Positions 2,982 through 13,974 are shown, counted from the first letter of the stretch. The stretch: 64,000 nt of DNA from Vicinamibacterales bacterium (GCA_963787755.1 CAWBEG010000001.1:28089-92088); one strand, 5' to 3'. Program-made: numbers and translations. The notes: generated from the letters alone by a model not told the origin.

Positions 2982-4384
2982 CTACCGCTCGATCATTTCA
3001 ATCGCCGTGTCGGTCTGGAGCGCGAAGCGGCCCCGGCCAGTTGAGACGATCTGTACGTCCGGGCATTTTTCCTGAAGGCGATGGCGCAGCAGGATGAGGC
3101 GGCTCTCGAAGTTGTCCTTCACCGGCGGCAAGCCGAGCGATTCGTCCAGCCGCACTTCGCGGTTCGTGAATTCCGTGCGCCCCGTGCGCTGCGATTCGTC
3201 GAGCAGCTTCCACAGAATACGCGCCGGGATGTTGCGGATCAGATATTCGCCGTCGACGAAGATCGCGTCGTCCTTCCTGTAATAGGTCAGCGTGCGTTTC
3301 TTCTTCGCAGGGTTTACCACTTGCCCCTGCCCCTCACCCCTCGCCCCTCACCCCTTACCCCTTTCGATGGCCGCGCCGGCGAAGCGTCGGCGTCCGTGTC
3401 AAGAGTCGTCATCCGATCGATGCCCAGCGCGATCTGGTTGCCGATAATCTGCAGATACGCCTCGTGCCATTCACCAAAGCGCATCGGATCGCGATCTTCG
3501 GCCGACAGCACGCCGACAAGGCGATCGCCGACCGTCAGCGGAATGGCCAGGGTGCTTTTCGCGTCGGCCAGTCCTGGGAGCGGGATGTCCGCGCACGCGT
3601 CCTCGCTGGCGGCCTCGCGGCGAATCGCGCGCCCATAGGCGAGGTCCGCATCGAAGCTGCTGAAGCGCAGCACCTGGCGATCTCGCGCGGCGGTGCCGAT
3701 CACCCCCTCGCCGAGCCGCACCTCCGCGCCGATGCCGCTCTCGCCGTAGCCGCGGCTCGCGAGCGTCACGAGCTTCCCGCAGGGCTCGTCGTACAGCAGC
3801 ACGCTCGTGTGCCTGAACGTAAAATATTCCTCGAGCGCCTCGAGCGCCGCATGCAGCAGCGTCTCGAGATCGCGCGCACGGTTGATGCGCTCCGACACCC
3901 ATTGCAGCCCACGCACCTCCGAGCGGTGCCCTGCAAGCGACGGGGCCTCCGATGCGACCTCGGGGCGACCGGCGACGAGAAACCCTTCCACTCTTTCCAG
4001 CGACTGCACTTCGAACACGTCCGCCGCAATCAAACGGAAAATGCCTTTCATGCCTGTCGCCGACGCGATGGCCTCTATGCGCGCCGACATCGTGTCGAAC
4101 AGCGGCCCCTGATTCTCCGACCGCAGGAATTTCAACCTGATTCGGTACGCCTGAAGGGTAAGCGGATCGACCATCTCCACGCACGCGCGCGGGTTCTCGT
4201 CGAGATTGCGGCGCGTCTTGTTGAAGAACTGGCACGACAACGCAACGTGTCGCTCGTCAAGGTAATAGACCTGGCTGACGTACGTGATGTTCGGTACGCC
4301 GCGTCCATCCACCGTGGCGATGAGGCTGGGCGTGACTCCCTGAAAGCAGCTCGAAAGGTCCGATAACTTCACGGGTGCGGTCAT
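2982..4384 (-). CDS. PNPOx-like (FMN split barrel) + GAF + C-terminal winged-HTH regulator, split by a 1-nt frameshift near 3325
   Basis: N-term [21 protein letters not shown]...[12 protein letters not shown]; GAF with GEGVIG and [15 protein letters not shown]; ORF 2982-3320 continues in frame if one base is added to a 6-nt unit within a 7-nt repeat. Confidence 0.8.
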
Positions 4385-4962: not shown

Positions 4963-5541
4963 ATGAAAAACACATTCATCGCCGCAACCGCCGTCTTCTT
5001 TGTCGCCGCCGCAGGATTCGTCACGCTCTCCACCAGTCAGACACAACCTCAGGATCCTGCGCCTTCACACGCCGCGAAGGTGCAACGGGGCGAGTACCTC
5101 GTGAAAATCATGGGCTGCAACGATTGCCACACGCCGTGGAAGATGGGGCCGCAGGGCCCCGAGCCCGACATGGACCGTTTCCTCTCGGGGCACCCTGAGC
5201 AGATCGGACCGCTGCCGAACGTGAAGGCCGCCGAGCCGTTCCTCTGGTCGGGCTTCCCCACCAACACCGCGTTCAGCGGACCGTGGGGTGTGAGCTACGC
5301 GTTCAACCTGACGCCCGAGCAGAACACGGGGCTCGGCATCTGGACCGAGGAGATGTTCGTGCAGACGATTCGCACGGGCAGGCACATGGGCGTGTCGCGT
5401 CCCATCAACCCGCCGATGCCGTGGCCGGCGTATCGGAACGCAACGGACGACGATCTGAAAGCGGTCTACGCGTATCTGCGGACGATCAAGCCGATCGTCA
5501 ACCACGTGCCTGAGTACAAGGCGCCGGGCGATTCCAACTAG
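4963..5541 (+). CDS. Periplasmic c-type cytochrome
   Basis: Signal peptide; RGEYLV..GCNDCHTP; NLTP..TGLG.WT; PPMPW. Confidence 0.9.
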   Translation: MKNTFIAATAVFFVAAAGFVTLSTSQTQPQDPAPSHAAKVQRGEYLVKIMGCNDCHTPWKMGPQGPEPDMDRFLSGHPEQIGPLPNVKAAEPFLWSGFPTNTAFSGPWGVSYAFNLTPEQNTGLGIWTEEMFVQTIRTGRHMGVSRPINPPMPWPAYRNATDDDLKAVYAYLRTIKPIVNHVPEYKAPGDSN

Positions 5542-5680
5542 CGGTTACGGGTTCCTGTTCCGAACTATCAGCCACGCGCTTGCGAGATGCTGATGCGTCA
5601 GAGGGTCTGACGCAGGCCTTACTGCTTCTTGCGATTTGTGCTTGGACCCCTAATCCCAAGTCCCCAATCCCTGTTTTCAG

Positions 5681-6997
5681 CTAGTCCTTGAACGGATCGA
5701 ACGTATCAGCACCGGCCATCGCCACGCCGATAGGCCGCAACGTGTGCAGGACTTTGATCGTGTCGCCGTGATGCGCGAGCACATCAGGAAGATGCTTGTA
5801 GCATTCAGGCGCTTCGTCGGCTCCGGCTCCGCGCAACTCAACGCCTTGCGCTTTGAGCTTCGCTTGCCAGTTTGGCCAATTCACGACGCCATCCCTGACG
5901 CGATCTTCCTTGGTCTGCCGGTGCATCTTCGACTGACACAGTGGACACTTCGGATTGCCGCCGTCAACGCCGCGTTCAGTCTGAATTGGCAGCGTGCCGT
6001 TGCAGTCGCGTTGTCCGCAGCCCCAAATAGTGCGCCGTTTCACCTTGCCGGCTGCTTGAGTCCGACTCATTACGCGGCCCGCTCCGTGGACGGTCGAGTA
6101 CAACGCCGCCGCAGACTCGGGCGAATCCACGCCCTCGACGATCACAGCGTCGTCGCCCATCGTCCCGCCGATGAATCCACGCTGACCGGGGAACGCTGGC
6201 GTAGCGCCCTTCCGAATGACGATGAACGATTCGCCGCCGTGCGTTTCTTCCCATGCGAAGTTGTGGTGGTTGTGGACACGCAGCGTGTCCGACGCACCCA
6301 GGATCGTCAGCACGCGATCAACGACCCAATTCCTGCCCGCATAGGCATACTCGCCCGCAATCTTCATCGCCGCGAGATAGTCCTGACCGAGTGGCGACTG
6401 GAGCGACAACAACATCGGGGGATCGTCCATGCCGCCCTCGCTGGTGTGTTCATCAAAGGCCTTGCCAGCCGCGAGCGAGAGAAACCCTGTGCACGTCTTG
6501 TGACCGAGGCCGCGAGAGCCGAAATGCACACCAATCCACAGACGCCCATCGGCTCGATCTTCGAATAAATCGACGTAATGATTGCCGCTACCGACCGTAC
6601 CGAGCTGGTTGCGCGCCGACTGCAGGAGCCTTCGCTGTCCCGCAACCGGACTGTTCGCGATCAGGTCGTAGACCGGATGGGCATCGATGCGCTCGTCATT
6701 GTTCCGGCCCATGCCGAAGGAAATCACCTGCCAGATCTCATCCATCAGCCGCGACACCTCCAAGCGGAGATCGGGCACGTGGATGTTCGTCCGCACCGCG
6801 CAGTTCCCGCACGCGATGTCATAGCCGACACCAGCAGGAATAACCGAATCCTTCAGCGCGATCACGCCGCCAATCGGCATCGAGTAGCCGGGATGGTGAT
6901 CCGCACACAACACGGCTGGCGCGGCCTCACCGCTGGCCGTGATGCAGTTGTCGAGTTGCTGGCGCGAACGCTCATCCGTCGGACCAAACACCTTCAT
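5681..6997 (-). CDS. rtcB: RtcB family RNA ligase with a four-Cys insertion
   Basis: ADHH, GYDIACG, GSGNHY, HFGSRG, NHHN, RKGATPA, HGAGR, DEAP.CYK motifs. Confidence 0.95.
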   Translation of the reverse strand: MKVFGPTDERSRQQLDNCITASGEAAPAVLCADHHPGYSMPIGGVIALKDSVIPAGVGYDIACGNCAVRTNIHVPDLRLEVSRLMDEIWQVISFGMGRNNDERIDAHPVYDLIANSPVAGQRRLLQSARNQLGTVGSGNHYVDLFEDRADGRLWIGVHFGSRGLGHKTCTGFLSLAAGKAFDEHTSEGGMDDPPMLLSLQSPLGQDYLAAMKIAGEYAYAGRNWVVDRVLTILGASDTLRVHNHHNFAWEETHGGESFIVIRKGATPAFPGQRGFIGGTMGDDAVIVEGVDSPESAAALYSTVHGAGRVMSRTQAAGKVKRRTIWGCGQRDCNGTLPIQTERGVDGGNPKCPLCQSKMHRQTKEDRVRDGVVNWPNWQAKLKAQGVELRGAGADEAPECYKHLPDVLAHHGDTIKVLHTLRPIGVAMAGADTFDPFKD

Positions 6998-7009
6998 CGC
7001 ATCTCCCTT

Positions 7010-7849
7010 TCAGTAATTCGTCGTCCGATCGATCAGCCCGCGCTCGCGTGCAATGAGGTCGCAGCGGCGGAATATCGCCGCCGCCATGACTCCCATCGCA
7101 GCCGTCATCGCCACGACCAGAACGACCAGCTCTCCATCGCCGATACCCGCCAGCGACGGATACTGATGAGCGACGCGGGCGAGGAGCGCGCGCCGCACCA
7201 GCTCGAGCCAGTAGGTGACCGGCATCAGGTAGCCGACCGGCCGCAGCCACGCCGGCAGCGCATCGAGTGGAAACACCGCGCCGCAGAAGAGAAACAATGC
7301 GCCGGCGACGGCCTCTCCTACCAGCCACGATCCATGGGCGATGGTCAGCACGACGCTCGCGAGCGCCAGCCCCATCATGGCGAGCATCGCGACACCGATG
7401 CCGAGCGCCACGATGAACAGCACCCACCGCACCTCACCCAGGTTCAGCTGCAGGTGCAGGAACGCCATGCCGGCGCCGATCGTCACCAGAACCGACAACG
7501 ACGTCGTCAGAAACCGCGCGAAGCCGCGGCCGATCAGGTACATCGGAATGCTGACCGGCGCGACGTACATCGACTTGAGCGTTCTGAAGCGCTCGCGATC
7601 GTCAACGACGCACTGCGCCATACCCGCCATGATGGCGCCGACGTACATGTAAAACGCGTTGCCGATATACATGTACGAGAACGCCGTCGACGCGAAATTC
7701 CCCTGCGTCACCATGCCGAACATGACGACGAGGATGGCCGCCGACGTGAGCGGCTTGATGATCGAATAGAGCGCGAACAGGGCAGGCGACGCCCAGTTCG
7801 ATTCAATTTGCCACCCGAGCCACGCCGCGGTGCGCAACGATGTCCACAT
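7010..7849 (-). CDS. ABC-2 type exporter permease
   Basis: About six TM segments; FCGAVFPLDALP.WL...P.TYWLE. Confidence 0.9.
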   Translation of the reverse strand: MWTSLRTAAWLGWQIESNWASPALFALYSIIKPLTSAAILVVMFGMVTQGNFASTAFSYMYIGNAFYMYVGAIMAGMAQCVVDDRERFRTLKSMYVAPVSIPMYLIGRGFARFLTTSLSVLVTIGAGMAFLHLQLNLGEVRWVLFIVALGIGVAMLAMMGLALASVVLTIAHGSWLVGEAVAGALFLFCGAVFPLDALPAWLRPVGYLMPVTYWLELVRRALLARVAHQYPSLAGIGDGELVVLVVAMTAAMGVMAAAIFRRCDLIARERGLIDRTTNY

Positions 7850-7901
7850 ATTTCCTCAATACTTGCGGTTCTAGGTCCTAGGTTCTGTGGTTCTGTATCC
7901 G

Positions 7902-8750
7902 TTACGCCCTGGCTTCTGTAAGCCGTCCTTCGGCAATTGCCAACCGTTCCAGCCGCTGCAGTAACATCCGCGCTGCAATCAGGAACAGCACGCACAGACC
8001 GGCCAGCACGGCGATCTCGGTCCGCACGTCGAGAAAACCAAGCTCCGCGCCGGATGCGAACGACAACTGGCGAATCGCGTCGAGCGCCAGCGTCAGCGGA
8101 ATAATCGACGCCCCTGCGGCGACCCAGAAGTTGAAGCTGCGAATCGGGAAAAACGTACCCGACAGCAGAAACACCGGCTCCTGCGCCAGATTCACAAGAT
8201 GCCAACCCTCGCGGCCGAGCATCAGGAACATCGAAGCGAACATCATCCCCATCCCGTAGAGCGCAACAAGCGCCAGCGCGAACACCGCCGCCAGCAGCGG
8301 AACGCTCTCAACCGCGAAGTGCACATCGAACAGCAGGCTGCCGATCACGAGGATGCTGACCGCGCGCACCGTTGTCGTGAACATGCCGCCGAGCGCCATG
8401 CCCAGCAGTACGGCCATCATCGAGTTCGGAGCCATGATGTAGAGCGCGAGGTTGCCCGTCTCTTTCTCCCAGAAGAGCTGGTTCCCCATCGACCACAGCA
8501 CGTTCATCCAATACGCGCTCATCGCGCCGCCGATAATCACGAACCCGATGAGATCGGCCGGCGCGTTGTTCGCGCGATAGATGAACACGTACGCGCAGAG
8601 ACCGATCAGCGGCAGCACGATATCGAACACGAGCCACCACTTCTCCCTGACGTTCATGATGAGGCGCGGATACGCGCGCGCCGCCACCGTGCGCGCGAAG
8701 AGGCGCCATCCGGACGCTCGACTTTCGACTCTGGACAATGGACTATTCAT
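7902..8750 (-). CDS. ABC-2 type exporter permease
   Basis: EKETGNL, LSGTFFPI, PLTLALDAIRQ. Confidence 0.9.
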   Translation of the reverse strand: MNSPLSRVESRASGWRLFARTVAARAYPRLIMNVREKWWLVFDIVLPLIGLCAYVFIYRANNAPADLIGFVIIGGAMSAYWMNVLWSMGNQLFWEKETGNLALYIMAPNSMMAVLLGMALGGMFTTTVRAVSILVIGSLLFDVHFAVESVPLLAAVFALALVALYGMGMMFASMFLMLGREGWHLVNLAQEPVFLLSGTFFPIRSFNFWVAAGASIIPLTLALDAIRQLSFASGAELGFLDVRTEIAVLAGLCVLFLIAARMLLQRLERLAIAEGRLTEARA

Positions 8751-9744
8751 GCTCGACCTCTTCCATACTCCGTCCCACGAGATCGACGAACACGTCCTCG
8801 AGCGTCGGCTCGCGCTTCGTCAGGGTGACCAGGCCGATCTGTCTGGACTCGAGCAACCCGATCACGGGACCGAGCACGCGCTCCTCCTGCAGGATGAGCT
8901 CCACCGTTGAACCTCCGTCCTTGATGCGATGCGTGGCCTTCTGCACGCCTGCGAGCGAAGCGAGCGCCGACACATCACCGTCTCCAAGCGCCGTCGTCTC
9001 GAGGTGGAAGATCGGCTCCCGCTGCAGCTTCCGCTTCAACGCCGACGGCGTATCGCACGCGAGCACGCGGCCGGCGTTGATAATCGCGACGCGATCGCAC
9101 AGCTCATCGGCCTCGACCATGTAATGCGTCGTCAGCAGCACCGTCCGCCTGGCGTCTTCGTCGACCCAGCGCCGGATGTACTGCCGCGCGTCGCGCGACG
9201 CCTCGACGTCCAGCCCGAGCGTAGGCTCGTCGAGAAACAACACTCTTGGATCGGTGAGGAATCCGCGGGCGATATTCATCTTCTGTCTCAGCCCGGTCGA
9301 CAGCTGCGACGATTTGGTGTGCAGCCGATCGGCCATCTTGACGATGTCGAGCAGCTCGACAATGCGCCTGTTCGCGTCGGCAGAGCTCAGCCCGTAGAAC
9401 TGCGCGAACATCCACAGGTTTTCGCGCACGGTCAACAAGCCGTACCCCGACGCCTCGCCCCCCGACACCATGTTGATGCAGGGGCGCACGAATTGCGGCT
9501 CGTGGCGCACGTCGTAGCCTTCGACCGCCGCCCAGCCGGACGAGGGTGCGAGCAGCGTCGTGAGGATCTTGATCAGCGTCGTCTTGCCGGCGCCGTTGGG
9601 GCCGAGCAAGCCGAAGAGCTCCCCTCGCGACACGGTCAGCGTGACGTCGCTCAGCGCGATGCGCTCCTTTGACTCCTCCTTGTTGTTCTTCCGGGGTTTG
9701 TAGATCCGCCCCAGCCGCTCCGTCTCAATCGCCAGTGCCTGCAT
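8743..9744 (-). CDS. ABC exporter ATP-binding protein (DrrA-like)
   Basis: GPNGAGKTT, LSTGLRQK, LDEPTLGLD, TTHYM; start placed at MQALAIE because the longer ORF runs into the terminator. Confidence 0.92.
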   Translation of the reverse strand: MQALAIETERLGRIYKPRKNNKEESKERIALSDVTLTVSRGELFGLLGPNGAGKTTLIKILTTLLAPSSGWAAVEGYDVRHEPQFVRPCINMVSGGEASGYGLLTVRENLWMFAQFYGLSSADANRRIVELLDIVKMADRLHTKSSQLSTGLRQKMNIARGFLTDPRVLFLDEPTLGLDVEASRDARQYIRRWVDEDARRTVLLTTHYMVEADELCDRVAIINAGRVLACDTPSALKRKLQREPIFHLETTALGDGDVSALASLAGVQKATHRIKDGGSTVELILQEERVLGPVIGLLESRQIGLVTLTKREPTLEDVFVDLVGRSMEEVEHE

Positions 9745-9774
9745 GGGTGCCTCGTACGTAAACTTCGCCGGACC

Positions 9775-9811
9775 AAAAAAAAAGGCCATCACCTCGCGGG
9801 TGATGGCCTTT
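9775..9811 (-). terminator. Intrinsic terminator/attenuator upstream of the ABC-rtcB operon
   Basis: Minus strand AAAGGCCATCACC-CGCGA-GGTGATGGCCTTT followed by a U-run (9 U in total). Confidence 0.9.
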
Positions 9812-9839
9812 GGAAAAAGGGCTCTTGGGTCTGGCTACA

Positions 9840-9926
9840 TCACCCGGACACGTCTGCACACATGCCGACGCCGATGGCGTCGAAAGCGGTGCGCGACGAA
9901 CGATACACGTGGGTGAATGCCTGCAT
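9840..9926 (-). CDS. Putative 28-aa leader peptide MQAFTHVYRSSRTAFDAIGVGMCADVSG
   Basis: Manual translation; ATG overlaps the kinase stop (TGATG); its stop region is complementary to the terminator 5' arm. Confidence 0.65.
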   Translation of the reverse strand: MQAFTHVYRSSRTAFDAIGVGMCADVSG

Positions 9927-11291
9927 CAGAGTGAAGTAGGAGAACACAGAGAGGGGTCTGGTGTCAATGCGGGCAGCGAAATGACAAACATCGAACCGAC
10001 ACCCGGCTCGCTTGTACAGGTGATGTCGCCGCCATGCGCCACGAAGACGGTGCGCGCAATCGAGAGACCCAAGCCCGATCCTCCCATCTCGCGCGAGCGC
10101 GCCTTGTCGACCCGAAAGAACCGGTCGAACACGCGCGGCAACGCCTCGCCGGGAATCCCGATCCCCGTGTCAACAACCTCGATGCGCGCCGTCACACCGG
10201 ATTGCCGTGTGGAGATCGTCACGCTGCCGCCGGGCTTGTTGTAGAGAATCGCGTTCGCGATGACGTTGTTCAGCGCTTCGCGCAACTGCTCGGCATCGCC
10301 GTTCACCGTGAACGGATCGCCGCCGACACCCAAACGAATCCCGCGCGCCTGCGCCATGGGCGCGAGCCATGTGACGACATCGTCGATGAGCGTTCGCATG
10401 GCGACCGGTGCGGGGTCTTGTACATCGGGCGCAACTTCGGCGCGAACCAGCGCGAGGAGCCGCTCGACGATATCCTGCATGCGGAGCGCGGCGCGCCGGC
10501 CTACCGTCAGCGCGTCCTTGTACTGTTGAGCGGATCGCTCGCGATCGAGCGCCCACTCCGTCTCGGCGCGGAGCACCGAGATGGGCGTGCGAAGCTCGTG
10601 CGACGCATCGGCGATGAACCGGCGTTCCTGCTCGACCACCAGGCGCAGCCGATCGAACGCGTCATTCAACGTCGAGGCCACTTGCTCGAGCTCGCTCTCG
10701 GTATGTTCGACGGCGATGCGTGCATTCAGATCCCCCTCCGACATCGCTCGCGCTGTCTGGCTGATTCGCTTAATCGGCGCCAGAGCTCGTCCTGCCACGA
10801 ACCACCCGCCGAAGACCGCGACGACGAGCGTCGCGACGCCGGCCAGGAGGACGTTCAGGAACAAGCCCCATTCTGCGCGTCGTAAGTCGGCAATGTCGCG
10901 GCCGACGAGCACGGTCGCACCACCGGCGGCCAGGAGCGCCTTTTCACGGCGTCCTTCCGCAGTGTTGCCCGGGCGCCCAACGTGCAGATCCGGATCTGAT
11001 TGATCGACGAGCTCGCCGCCCGGACCCCAGATGACGTAATACGGCCGTCCTCCCTCGCGCCGGAAGAAGTACGTCGCTGCGTCGGACGGCAGCTCGAGGT
11101 CGAAGCGGCCGCCTTCGACCGGCTTCAGCGCCTTGCTCACTTCACGCGCGTACGCATCGAGCTCGGCATCGACGCCGGCCATCATCGAGCGCCACGATTG
11201 ATAGACGACCGCCCCGCCGTACAGACACGACGACGAGGGTGAGGACCAGTGCGTACCACAACACCAGCCGGACGCGCAGCGAATCACGCAT
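9926..11291 (-). CDS. HAMP-domain sensor histidine kinase (frameshift near 11230)
   Basis: MRDSLRVRLVLWY start; ADASHELRTP, NVIANAILY, DTGIG, FDRFFR, GSGLGL. Confidence 0.92.
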
Positions 11292-11941
11292 TGACAATGT
11301 AGCCCTGCCCCCGGCGCGTGTGGATGACAGTGGGCCCGAGCTTCCGGCGGAGCGCGGCGATATGCACGTCGATGACGTTCGAGAACACGTCGCTCGCCTC
11401 GCTGTAGATGTGCTCGCAGATCGCCGACCGCGTCACGAGGGTGCCGCGATGTCGAACCATCAGCTCGAGAATCGCGTACTCGCGCGCCGTCAAGCTCGAC
11501 CGGCACGTTCTCGCGATACACCAGCCGCGCCGCCCTGTCGATCGTGATATCGCCGACGACGAGCACCGGCGCGGGGTTGCCTCCGGCTCTCCGTACGAGC
11601 GCGCGAAGGCGTGCCACGAGCTCGGAGATGGCGAACGGCTTCGGCAGATAATCGTCGGCGCCAAGGTCGAGCGCCTTGACGCGATCCTCGACGGCGTCGA
11701 GCGCGGTCAGAATCAGAACCGGCGTACGCGCCCCCGATTGCCGCAAATCCTGCAGAAGCGTCCAGCCGCTGCGCTTTGGCACCATCAGGTCGAGCACGAC
11801 CGCATCGTAGGAGACTTCGTCCAGCATGTACTGCGCTTCGTCCCCATCCGCAGCGATATCGACGGCAAAGTGCGACTCGTTGAGCGCACGGCTCAGTGTG
11901 CTGGCCAGATCGGCCTCATCCTCGACGACGAGCACTCTCAT
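11284..11941 (-). CDS. OmpR/PhoB family response regulator (frameshift near 11490 fuses it to the kinase in the ORF track)
   Basis: MRVLVVEDE, LDLM, GADDYLPKPF; alternative frame LTAREYAILE...NVIDVHIAALRRKL...IHTRRGQGY. Confidence 0.92.
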
Positions 11942-12591
11942 GGTTTCTTGATCGCGGCAGGTGGCGTATCCTCGGTTTCATCCTCGATGCGGAAGTCGTC
12001 GAACATGACGGTGGAATCACCGCCGGTCCAAAGCCCGACGCTGGCGCTGGCGCGCGGCAGACGGTCACGCTCGGTGAGGACGCGGATGCCGCCGAGGTAC
12101 ACGCGAATCTCTCCGCGTTCCTGAAAAATCTTCAACGAGTGCCACGCGTCAGGATCGAGCTCGAGATCGTCCTCGCGCTCGATCCGGATGCGATTGCCAT
12201 TGACGACGCGGTACATCGCGAGCTCCTGCTTTGCGAGATCGAGCTGCGCCGAGTAGTGGTTCATTCGATCCTGATATTTCCATACCAGGCCCGCCGTACG
12301 CGCACCGCCGGTCGTCTTGAAACGCACCGACACCTGAACGTCCTGATACTGCGAGCCCGAATAAATGGCAACCGCGAAACTGTCGGCAGGAGATGGCTTC
12401 CCCTCGTGCGCGAGGACGCGCCCTGTGCCCTCGCGCTTGATGATCCACCCCTCGGGCGCGGCGTCGCGCCCGGCTGCCATCGCAAATCCCGCGGGCGGCG
12501 CGCCGATCTTGTCGTCGTCGAACGTGCGCAGGACTACGTTCTGCGCCGCCACGGCAGCCTGGAGGAACATCGCCAGCGCGAGCAGCAACAT
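11938..12591 (-). CDS. Secreted concanavalin/LamG-like (DUF1080-like) beta-sandwich protein
   Basis: Signal peptide; AGLVWKY.D..NHY, WHSLKI, VGLWT, FDDF. Confidence 0.65.
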   Translation of the reverse strand: MLLLALAMFLQAAVAAQNVVLRTFDDDKIGAPPAGFAMAAGRDAAPEGWIIKREGTGRVLAHEGKPSPADSFAVAIYSGSQYQDVQVSVRFKTTGGARTAGLVWKYQDRMNHYSAQLDLAKQELAMYRVVNGNRIRIEREDDLELDPDAWHSLKIFQERGEIRVYLGGIRVLTERDRLPRASASVGLWTGGDSTVMFDDFRIEDETEDTPPAAIKKP

Positions 12592-12616
12592 GCTGATGGA
12601 ATTGTAGCGCCGGCTC

Positions 12617-12665
12617 GTGAAGCTGCCGTGAAGCTTTTCGAGCCGGGACTTCACAGCACCTTCAT
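12617..12665. promoter_or_regulatory. Two inverted pairs of TGAAG-N6-TGAAG direct repeats (OmpR-type operator)
   Basis: gtgaag 12617 and 12628; cttcac 12649 and cttcat 12660; minus-strand TACAAT at 12601-12606. Confidence 0.6.
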
Positions 12666-12730
12666 CTCGCTGCAGTTATAAACATCACAGAACAAAGGGC
12701 GTTTTTCCATGTCTCCAGAGGGCGTGTCGA

Positions 12731-13974
12731 ATGTATTGTCGGCTGTTGATTGGGTTGGTTCTCGCGTGCGTGCTTCCGTCGAGCGTTTTCGCGCAGGACG
12801 CCAACGGCCGGCTGAAAGTGTACCTGGACTGCAACGACTGTTTCGGCGATTACATCCGCGAGGAAGTCAACATGGTGGAGTACGTGCGCGATCCGGCCGA
12901 GGCCGACGTGCATATCATCGTGTCGCAATCGGATACCGGCAGCGGTGGCATCGAGCGCGCGGTCGCGCTGATCGGCATCGGCCGCTTCAAAGGCATGGAC
13001 TTCAAGTCACGCGCTATTTCGCAGAGCGGCGACACAGAAGACACGCAACGGCAGCGGCTCGCGACGGCGATCACCATCGGCCTGCTGAACTATCTCGCGA
13101 GTGAGGGCGTCAAGGGCGGTTTATCGGTCGAAGTCGAGCAGACAGCGCAGCCCGGCCAGGCCGGTCCGGCCACCGATCGGTGGAACTTCTGGGTGATGAG
13201 CCTGCAGGGATCGGTCGCGATGACCGGCGAAGAAAGCAGCCGCGAGCTCGACCTGGAAGCCCAGCTCGGCGCTGATCGCATCACCGACGAGTGGAAGATT
13301 ACGACAGGTTTCGAGATCGAATACCGGCGCGAAGACTTCGATCTCGACGAGGACGAACCGCTGCGTGCCGATCCGGACGCAGCGCGACTTCGACGGCCTC
13401 GTCGCGCGCAGCCTGAACGATCACTGGTCGGCGGGCGGCCGCGCGAGCATCGATTCCTCGACGTTCGACAACATCGCCATCCGGTCGTTCATCGGTCCTG
13501 CAATCGAATACAACCTCTTCCCGTATTCGCAGTACACGCGCAGGCAGTTGCGCTTCGGCTATGCCGTCGGGCCGTACTACGCTCGGTATCGCGAAGAGAC
13601 ACTGCTGTTCACGATGTCCGACAGAATGACCCAGCAGGAGGCGTCAGTCACGATCGATCAGCGCGAGCCGTGGGGATCGTTGCAGGCGGAAGTCGAATAT
13701 TCGACGTTTCTTCCGGATGTCTCGCTCTACCGCATTCAGCTCGAGGGGGACGTCAACGTGCGACTGGCGCGCGGGCTGTCACTGTCCATCGAAGGCAGCA
13801 CGAGCCGCATCCGCGATCAGATTTCGATTCCTCGACGGGGCGTGACGGAGGAGGAAGTGCTGCTGCGCCTTCGCCGTCTGCGCAGCGGCTACGAGTACAA
13901 CCTGCAGATAGGGCTTACGTACACATTCGGGTCGATCTTCAACACGCATCGTCAATCCGCGGTTCGGCCAGTAG
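12731..13974 (+). CDS. Outer-membrane beta-barrel protein (frameshifts near 13370 and 13945)
   Basis: Signal peptide, N-terminal YLDCNDC domain, barrel strands, reconstructed C-terminus YTFGSIFN.IVNPRFGQ*. Confidence 0.7.

Follow-up and report, generated by a model that had tools for sequence, protein, structure and literature searches.

A 64,000-nucleotide (nt) stretch of DNA from a Vicinamibacterales bacterium (GCA_963787755.1 CAWBEG010000001.1:28089-92088), hereafter called the window, carries on its minus strand an operon for a DrrA-like ATP-binding cassette (ABC) exporter, and the operon is preceded by a short leader that probably works as a ribosome-dependent transcription attenuator. 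All features analysed here lie on that strand (Table 1). An ATPase gene, two permease genes and a gene of the RtcB family follow one another with successive spacings of an 8-nt overlap, 52 nt and 12 nt; their content and common direction, as given in an earlier reading of the bare sequence (the original prediction), were confirmed by open reading frame (ORF) calls and Pfam. The ATPase matches Pfam ABC_tran and DrrA1-3_C, and its start codon is kept in orthologues. Against the NCBIfam drrA subfamily it scores 274.8 bits (cut-off 312.45), and the permeases score 49.8 and 38.0 bits against drrB (cut-off 223).

Table 1. Features of the exporter locus and its leader, in window coordinates
Feature	Position	Strand	Remarks
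Two-component ORF, 671 amino acids (aa)	11941..9926	-	CopR/CzcR-like receiver and CusS/CzcS-like histidine kinase in a single frame; last 13 codons overlap the promoter-like box
-35-like box TTGACA	9962..9967	-	Within the final codons of the kinase ORF; invariant in 11/11 orthologous leaders
TGTGTTCTCCT, extended -10-like TG, then weak -10 (TCTCCT)	9938..9948	-	17-18 nt past TTGACA and 11-12 nt ahead of the uORF ATG; block conserved in 11/11
Upstream ORF (uORF), 28 codons + TGA	9926..9840	-	No Shine-Dalgarno sequence; predicted 5' untranslated region (UTR) of about 0-6 nt
Candidate region 1, UUCACCC (uORF codons 4-6)	9911..9917	-	Can pair with GGGUGA of region 2
Hairpin P1 within the uORF, GACGCC AUC GGCGUC	9867..9881	-	Possible pause hairpin; pausing role putative
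Region 2, antiterminator 5' strand, CGGGUGAUG-UA-GCC	9833..9846	-	Contains the uORF stop TGA (9842..9840) and an other-frame stop TAG (9837..9835)
Region 3, terminator 5' arm AAAGGCCAUCACC and two loop bases whose sole partner is region 2	9797..9811	-	
Region 4, terminator 3' arm GGUGAUGGCCUUU and nine-U run	9775..9793	-	
DrrA-like ABC ATPase gene	9744..8743	-	Shine-Dalgarno GAGG at 9753..9750; ATG at 9744
Two ABC-2 permease genes	8750..7902 and 7849..7010	-	Pfam ABC2_membrane
RtcB-family gene	6997..5681	-	Own Shine-Dalgarno AAGGGAG; 12 nt past the permease stop

The 28-codon uORF proposed in the original prediction (ATG to TGA) is present and encodes the peptide MQAFTHVYRSSRTAFDAIGVGMCADVSG, and its ATG does overlap the kinase stop codon (9928..9926) as TGATG. 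Between the uORF and the first structural gene sits a terminator with its 5' arm at 9811..9799, loop at 9798..9794, 3' arm at 9793..9781 and nine T at 9783..9775; its 13-bp stem has a computed energy of -22.0 kcal/mol, and it is the clearest of 7 terminator-like sites in 5000-13000 (shuffles, 5.2 +/- 2.3). We found that CGGGTGATG-TA-GCC (9846..9833) is complementary to GGC-CATCACCCG (9808..9797), the two forming a computed antiterminator duplex of 12 bp with a 2-nt bulge at -19.2 kcal/mol. Because the antiterminator takes the 5' arm of the terminator, the two structures are mutually exclusive; scanning and folding thus agree with the strong terminator at 9811-9775 and the complementary strand around the uORF stop that had been predicted. 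The uORF stop falls inside region 2, and a terminating ribosome would therefore cover the antiterminator strand. In the minimum-free-energy (MFE) fold of the leader alone, region 1 pairs with region 2 (1:2 duplex, -12.8 kcal/mol), and the full-length fold combines this 1:2 pairing with the terminator. When the transcript is cut before region 4, the MFE structure switches to pairing of regions 2 and 3 (2:3) in 6 of 11 orthologues, the window included.

Within the window, the most stable duplex that the terminator 5' arm can form with the 80 nt upstream reaches -20.9 kcal/mol, against a mean of -10.0 +/- 3.4 kcal/mol for background duplexes drawn from elsewhere in the locus, of which 0.4% reach the observed value. 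Since the observed duplex is the best of about 48 overlapping positions, a single locus is only suggestive; the pairing is considered to be more than chance because it is conserved and covaries in relatives. An ATPase protein search of 41 related genomes gave 11 orthologues of 76-92% identity, all from the same genus, and hence 12 loci with the window. These loci were picked by protein similarity, so that their choice is independent of the leader. The entire leader is kept in 11 of the 12 (10 orthologues and the window), and in the twelfth (L012, genome G023) a fused ABC exporter gene is inserted between leader and ATPase. All 11 leaders have the same order of elements, namely TTGACA, TGTG(T/G)T(T/C)TCCTA 17-18 nt further on, an ATG after another 9-12 nt, the uORF, its stop and a near-invariant hairpin. 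The uORF is open over 27-32 codons and ends at region 2 in every one of them, and it is open also in three further leaders (L037, L041 and L044); the peptides vary widely between orthologues. An 8-nt indel shifts the frame in L006, where the second stop, 5 nt on, still closes the uORF at region 2. Over its last third the uORF thus keeps its nucleotides but is read in two frames (L005 versus L006). The internal hairpin P1 appears in the RNAalifold consensus of 14 leaders, with two of its five pairs retained through changes on both sides, and P1-equivalent hairpins of other sequence are present in paralogous leaders.

The conserved box upstream of the uORF presumably functions as a promoter. Given this box and a start codon about 11 nt past the -10-like hexamer, the leader is probably a separate transcription unit whose 5' UTR would be a few bases at most. 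A strict sigma-70 consensus scan called 0 sites in 5000-13000, and an independent promoter between 9775 and 9744, a possibility raised with the original prediction, was not found, the 31-nt gap being too short and the scan showing none there. Only 3 of the 11 leaders (L001-L003) have the kinase stop overlapping the uORF ATG. In L005 and L010 the stop falls within TTGACA; L004 and L006 have it 18-19 nt before TTGACA, and in L007-L009 and L011 it precedes TTGACA by more than 90 nt. In view of this variable position, the TGATG overlap is regarded as incidental, and translational coupling to the kinase was rejected as a conserved feature. The two-component ORF of the window (9926-11941) holds the receiver at aa 1-150 and the sensor kinase at aa ~240-671 in one frame, and in relatives L162 and L163 the receiver and kinase parts match in different frames; the single frame of the window is either a fusion or an assembly frameshift.

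Across Vicinamibacterales, a conserved strand, GGUGAUGUAGCC, holds the uORF stop and pairs with the terminator 5' arm. An exact-pattern scan with one genome per species returned 97 stretches, and among the 80 of these that were listed nearly all belong to Vicinamibacterales or to Acidobacteriota metagenome-assembled genomes (MAGs). A covariance model of the 3' module, R1, was built from 89 leaders. Of the 151 genomes of the order that were sampled, 75 contain 1-5 matches each, and 42 of 79 genera are represented. Searching the DNA of the genus with the leader located the same architecture ahead of a major facilitator superfamily (MFS) transporter gene (L041, L044), ahead of fused MsbA-like ABC exporters (e.g., L040, L045, L054 and L057, the last being a second exporter copy in the window's own genome, C6:10855-10937) and ahead of prephenate dehydratase (L056, L059 and, in the window's own genome, C12). 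The promoter box travels with the leader ahead of the MFS and fused ABC exporter genes, and the TTGACA spacing is unchanged in paralogues; by its distribution, the leader is a movable unit. In the window genome, which is 75% complete, the hairpin sequence was located between genes just 3 times, each time with region 2 upstream, and it is thus neither a common terminator nor a repeat element. Many family leaders have TTGAC(A/T), a 17-nt spacer and T(C/G)TAAT or nATAAT, and their start codon follows the -10 at 6-11 nt. Canonical -10 boxes at such a distance suggest that a very short or absent 5' UTR is a rule of the family. The stop codon lies in region 2 or at most about 10 nt before it in every family leader read, and the two stops of the motif, in two frames, are both used.

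Because the exact-pattern scan fixed the core bases, covariation of the antiterminator was examined first in the flanks. Among 84 unique leaders with the exact motif, the base 5' of GGUGA and the base 3' of CAUCACC form G:C in 28, A:U in 22 and G:U in 20, with A:C once. This first flank pair is paired in 87% of leaders versus 70% after shuffling, and the next in 55% versus 41%; for each, 0 of 2000 shuffles reach the observed value. Alignment A1 gives a covariation score of 0.094 as compared with 0.053 for shuffled alignments (0 of 500 reach it) and at most 0.058 when the partners are slid. For the first loop base, pairing with region 2 is seen in 75 of 89 leaders and pairing with the terminator 3' arm in 51 of 89, and the base of the terminator stem covaries too (GC 45, AU 36, GU 8). 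For the core itself, 60 weaker R1 matches were fetched and 100 forward matches were aligned to R1, which encodes no 2:3 pairing. The weaker matches bear a second core allele, GGAUGAUG opposite CAUCAUCC. In the 100 model-aligned leaders, the core 2:3 pair is G:C in 47, A:U in 39, G:U in 9, A:C in 2 and other in 3, and the same region-3 base faces the terminator 3' arm as C:G in 49, U:G in 31 and U:A in 16. According to these counts, changes are matched more faithfully by the antiterminator partner than by the terminator partner. The association holds among the 59 rows ascertained by the model only (Fisher p = 3e-4), and both alleles of the core pair are found within each of the ilvD-, hom-, pheA- and branched-chain aminotransferase (BCAT)-type leader groups. 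The uORF and the alternative pairing, on which the original prediction depended, are thus conserved in homologous operons and covary.

Evidence that the scaffold is read by ribosomes comes from sister leaders ahead of amino acid genes. Automatic picking of the gene after a leader is unreliable in G+C-rich DNA; downstream gene classes were taken from N-terminal reading plus Pfam on 9 representatives of the other members, and the following numbers are not exact tallies: 25 of the 60 weaker matches precede IlvD-like, 14 homoserine-dehydrogenase (hom)-like and 5 prephenate-dehydratase (pheA)-like genes, and single ones precede acetolactate synthase (ilvB)-, BCAT (ilvE)-, IlvA- and aspartate-kinase (lysC)-like genes. 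The uORFs of ilvD leaders contain runs of 3-5 Val (e.g., SVVVGV, PVVVVV and RLVVVAVRVV), and those of hom leaders consist of 16-49% Thr plus Met in 13 of 14. The uORF of the aspartate-kinase leader reads TMTRTTTITT, and that of the IlvA leader reads AIIRI. A bias toward codons of the cognate amino acid on a shared scaffold is the classical signature of ribosome-stalling attenuation, and elsewhere in the family this scaffold is, as the codon content indicates, used as an amino acid attenuator.

Several other members of the family deserve description in their own right. Decayed copies occur as well: L042 (G003:C41) has the promoter box joined straight to the antiterminator strand and a T-run, with most of the uORF and hairpin lost, and L036, L038 and L046 keep the kinase end and promoter box without leader or exporter operon. 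The pheA-type variant of the genus (G000:C12:243132-243217 on the minus strand; L056, L059) has a module of GCGGAUG...UAGCC, then GGCCAUCAUCCGC, then GCGGGUG(A/G)UGGC. The uORF of the genus prephenate-dehydratase leader, MTLRPILSSFVTVVVTVTGITTMPVEQLRMS, has a single Phe, and 4 Phe are found in each of the pheA-type leaders L259 and L260 from other genera. Another subclass of 28 leaders has a uORF ending in ...L(V/L)L(I/T)S(V/I)GI.LPT..G, followed by an acidic ORF of 48-68 aa that ends in E(E/A)(P/A)GYG(H/Y)GV (L063, L067, L069, L074, L080, L082, L084, L085, L088 at 493-666, L089, L091, L098, L103, L108, L110, L114, L115, L118, L121, L127, L129, L130 at 3264-3452, L132-L134, L136, L139 and L140). 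In this tail it is the peptide that is conserved, the codons for Gly, Tyr, Val, Glu and Pro varying synonymously. A homoserine-dehydrogenase-like gene follows 12 of these small ORFs and a 2-hydroxyacid-dehydrogenase-like gene follows several others; in L082, L115 and L121 the homoserine-dehydrogenase-like frame appears to begin a few bases from the stop of the small ORF. The two members of these small proteins that were tested matched no NCBIfam family, and a protein atlas returned only 'hypothetical' clusters with scores below 0.9.

Taken together, these data suggest that 9967..9775 on the minus strand is a self-contained ribosome-dependent transcription attenuator gating the DrrA-like ABC-2 exporter operon, to which we assign a probability of roughly 0.8. 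The anatomy, its conservation, the covariation of the antiterminator and the use of the scaffold for amino acid attenuation elsewhere are all shown by comparing sequences; where transcription starts, that the uORF is translated and which way the switch works we infer, as follows. Transcription would start a few bases ahead of the uORF AUG, directed by the TTGACA / TG / TCTCCT box, and the 28-codon uORF would be translated without a Shine-Dalgarno sequence. Region 2, which holds the uORF stop, could pair either with region 1 in codons 4-6 or, more stably, with region 3. An unhindered ribosome arriving at the stop would cover region 2, leaving regions 3 and 4 to fold into the terminator, and the transcript would end at the U-run. 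A ribosome delayed earlier in the uORF would instead leave region 2 free as region 3 emerges, so that the antiterminator forms and RNA polymerase reads through into the ATPase, the permeases and, in this genome only, rtcB. The attenuator proposed in the original prediction is supported in this form by conservation, covariation and the codon runs of the sister leaders, and its parts concerning RtcB and cleaved tRNA find no support.

A number of observations weigh against this interpretation. Of the background windows, 0.3-4.4% equal the observed duplex energy, a range uncorrected for the ~48 overlapping positions tried. The 2:3 pairing is missing from the cut-transcript MFE structure in 5 of 11 orthologues, and the leaders are related to one another, so that the shuffle statistics overstate their independence. 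Flank covariation of the 1:2 pairing is weak (0.73 versus 0.65, with 263 of 5000 shuffles reaching the observed value), and this pairing has only 6 bp at -12.8 kcal/mol. The -10 of the window, TCTCCT, is atypical, and the strict sigma-70 scan does not call the box. Since the uORF has no Shine-Dalgarno sequence, its translation needs leaderless or near-leaderless initiation, of which we know of no documentation for this phylum. An RNA contig at 9851-10001 spans the predicted start, as might be expected if transcripts run on from the kinase gene or if DNA was carried over. Finally, the window uORF has no codon run, which makes the sensed signal a guess. In light of its weak covariation, the 1:2 anti-antiterminator was kept as a candidate only.

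The contig just mentioned is one of three short exact contigs from one metatranscriptome library (9278-9448, 9851-10001 and 10037-10187; depth 2-3), which indicate presence only. Short contigs alone were obtained from the 4 sequencing runs examined; they leave the stretch partly uncovered and are uninformative on starts, ends and strand. A peak of reads at 9556-9663 corresponds to the conserved Walker A region and is contributed by many organisms.

The question of what the leader senses has to be considered within the exporter subclass to which the window belongs, which is found ahead of ABC and MFS exporters and has the atypical TG/TCTCCT box. Exporter-type uORFs have ~24-32 codons, start with M-x-x-T plus an aromatic residue or His, and end in -RR or -xG before the stop. 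No codon run was seen in the window uORF or the other exporter-type uORFs, and regulatory codons for an end product were not found there. The same attenuator might respond to the supply of an amino acid or charged tRNA, the exporters then handling amino acids or metabolites related to them: amino acid attenuators make up the majority of the wider family, exporter-type uORFs share the early T-[FYWH], and the window uORF has less-favoured codons (GCA 0.12, twice; GCT 0.12; CGT 0.14). We consider this signal unlikely, given that exporter-type uORFs show no single-codon run and that the downstream genes encode DrrA/ABC-2, MsbA-like and MFS exporters and not biosynthetic enzymes. The early threonines speak in the same direction. 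Within the first 8 codons of 40 exporter-type uORFs, ACC accounts for 36 of 53 Thr codons versus 25 of 61 later on (Fisher p = 0.005), the ACC share of Thr codons in genes of the window genome is ~0.19-0.31, and YCACC occurs 66-78 nt ahead of the antiterminator strand in 37 of 84 leaders. This preference fits an RNA constraint, in which YCACC would pair with GGUG, better than codon sensing. A general or drug-induced slowing of translation, as for bmrB-bmrCD (see below), is our tentative choice of signal, at a little short of even odds; nothing points to cleaved tRNA, which the original prediction had offered as a stall signal. Going further, the exporter leaders may constitute a lineage-wide 'ribulon', in which at least two unrelated exporters per genome (DrrA/ABC-2, MsbA-like fused ABC, MFS) would be co-induced when translation of a leader peptide M-x-x-T-[FYWH]-[VI]-..., starting at or near the mRNA 5' end, is slowed. 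The peptide would then be a nascent-chain sensor of a ribosome-targeting compound of the soil, and the fixed two-stop cassette a reusable output stage onto which sensor ORFs were repeatedly grafted. We regard this extension as speculative and, on the whole, doubtful.

Explanations that dispense with the ribosome, or with the switch altogether, were weighed against the same observations. The GGUGAUGUAGCC / GGCCAUCACC module shows unusually strong sequence conservation between operons of unlike function and unlike uORF sequence, as it might if an RNA-binding protein or small ligand read it independently of the ribosome and the uORF were incidental, and protein-dependent antiterminators also have conserved sequences that overlap the terminator. 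What makes such a reader improbable is that a stop lies in or within ~10 nt of the strand in every leader read, with two built-in stops that are both used, that the ORF survives a frame-breaking indel in L006, that cognate codon runs precede ilvD-, hom- and lysC-like genes, and that the start codon keeps a fixed short distance from the -10 box. It is very improbable that the small ORF serves to make a functional peptide, for instance an exported or membrane one on which the ABC system acts, with the hairpin setting the ratio of peptide to transporter transcripts. A small gene beside an ABC exporter, with a strong hairpin between them, does resemble bacteriocin operons, but in its 3' third the uORF is conserved at the nucleotide level and read in two frames (L005, L006), the peptide varies widely between orthologues, and the same scaffold precedes ilvD, hom and pheA, conservation of the module being explained by pairing. 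The least credible alternative is that the hairpin merely terminates the two-component operon and that uORF and complementarity arose by chance. The hairpin does lie ~115 nt past the kinase stop, and open frames of ~28 codons are common in G+C-rich DNA; the kinase frame, however, ends no later than the promoter-like box in 8 of 11 relatives, 4 of which have the stop more than 90 nt upstream, and the leader occurs without a kinase before MFS and ABC exporter genes. Conservation and covariation of uORF and pairing, together with a hairpin sequence that occurs only in leaders in the window genome, also tell against it.

RtcB has to be separated from this design. When the window proteins were searched by tblastn against 7.5-10 kb surrounding each of the 11 orthologous operons, all 11 gave matches to the ATPase and to the two permeases and none to RtcB; elsewhere in the genus, RtcB matches reach at best 32-41% identity, at loci unrelated to the operon. 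Short G/T-rich repeats stand after the second permease gene in relatives and after RtcB in the window. This position, together with an RtcB gene that begins 12 nt past the permease stop with its own Shine-Dalgarno sequence, implies that RtcB was inserted at the 3' end of the operon. From gene order, RtcB is a recent insertion specific to this genome and outside the conserved design, and as part of the operon design it was rejected. Its co-transcription with the exporter in this genome is plausible, and the co-induction of export and RNA repair that had been predicted is not a conserved design. The repeats are tandem-like (C/A-rich on the other strand) with GGGATTGGGGA-like units, at 5640-5680 of the window, after the second permease in L158-L164, and upstream of leaders L045, L048 and L051.

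The RtcB protein itself matches Pfam RtcB (E 6e-67), and its motif blocks, including HGAGR, align to Pyrococcus horikoshii RtcB and to solved structures; it scores below the cut-offs of the NCBIfam equivalogs. Thousands of homologues of 60-87% identity exist and are named RtcB in Acidobacteriota MAGs, and by this abundance it is an ordinary member of the family. An insertion at aa ~319-363 contains four Cys (C-x4-C ... C-x2-C) and matches Pfam YdjO weakly (E 6.5e-05, below cut-off). With the Rtc RNA-repair operon (rtcR-rtcBA), the window shares a gene for an RtcB-family ligase with catalytic motifs; it differs in that its RtcB is attached to an exporter operon, in this genome only, and carries the Cys4 insertion, and in that adjacent RtcR or RtcA was not seen. 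The neighbouring ORFs scanned with Pfam (cytochrome c, ABC genes, the two-component ORF and a 3-keto-disaccharide-hydrolase-like ORF) included no RtcR-like or RtcA-like product, the rest of the genome not having been searched, in agreement with the earlier statement that no RtcR-type regulator is adjacent.

The mechanism itself is textbook, and the leader described here is a lineage-specific variant of it. The ilvBNC operon of Corynebacterium glutamicum is given as an example of the classical leader-peptide attenuator (PMC11857589). With the classical trp, thr and ilv attenuators, the window leader has in common a short leader ORF, a terminator, an antiterminator sharing the 5' arm of the terminator, and a possible 1:2 pairing, the position of the ribosome being decisive. 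Unlike them, it has no run of regulatory codons and gates an exporter, its uORF has no Shine-Dalgarno sequence, with starts in the family lying 6-12 nt past the -10 box, and one near-fixed module with stops in two frames is common to operons of differing function. Closer in output is bmrB-bmrCD of Bacillus subtilis, described as a ribosome-mediated attenuator of a multidrug ABC exporter, in which translation of the leader is reported to be needed for induction by protein-synthesis antibiotics (PMC4191407). Both systems have a small ORF just upstream of an ABC exporter, with alternative stem-loops and an intrinsic terminator; the window belongs to another phylum, its terminator comes after the uORF and not inside it, its exporter is of the DrrA/ABC-2 type, and the likeness is one of architecture only. 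In mycobacteria, leaderless polycysteine short ORFs were reported to act as attenuators, and their shared design was termed a 'ribulon' (bioRxiv 10.1101/834739). The mycobacterial ORFs resemble ours as unannotated short ORFs at the extreme 5' end of polycistronic mRNAs, several operons sharing one ribosome-sensed design; the leaders described here differ in having an intrinsic terminator as output and, in the exporter subclass, no codon run.

A 2010 survey noted predicted attenuators in Acidobacteria that lacked assigned functions (PMC2965389). Our full-text literature searches on leader peptides, attenuation, leaderless ORFs and uORFs in Acidobacteria or Vicinamibacter returned no prior description, and the element is absent from Rfam 15. 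No Rfam 15 family reached its gathering score in 5000-13000 of the window or in 15 sister leaders, the best score among the latter being Thr_leader at 24.8 bits (gathering score 55, E 0.41) in L219, 423-553 on the minus strand, before the aspartate-kinase-like gene. What appears to be new is the documentation of such attenuators in Acidobacteria, the near-leaderless uORFs, the fixed and reusable two-stop cassette, and its use before several exporters.

An appealing connection between RNA repair and efflux thus turns out to lack foundation. With R1 alone, 1-5 regulated operons can already be flagged in half of the genomes sampled from the order, and uORFs missing from annotations come to light, which helps the annotation of uncultured soil bacteria. 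The exporter subclass, in turn, suggests that in these bacteria several efflux systems are tied to the state of the ribosome.

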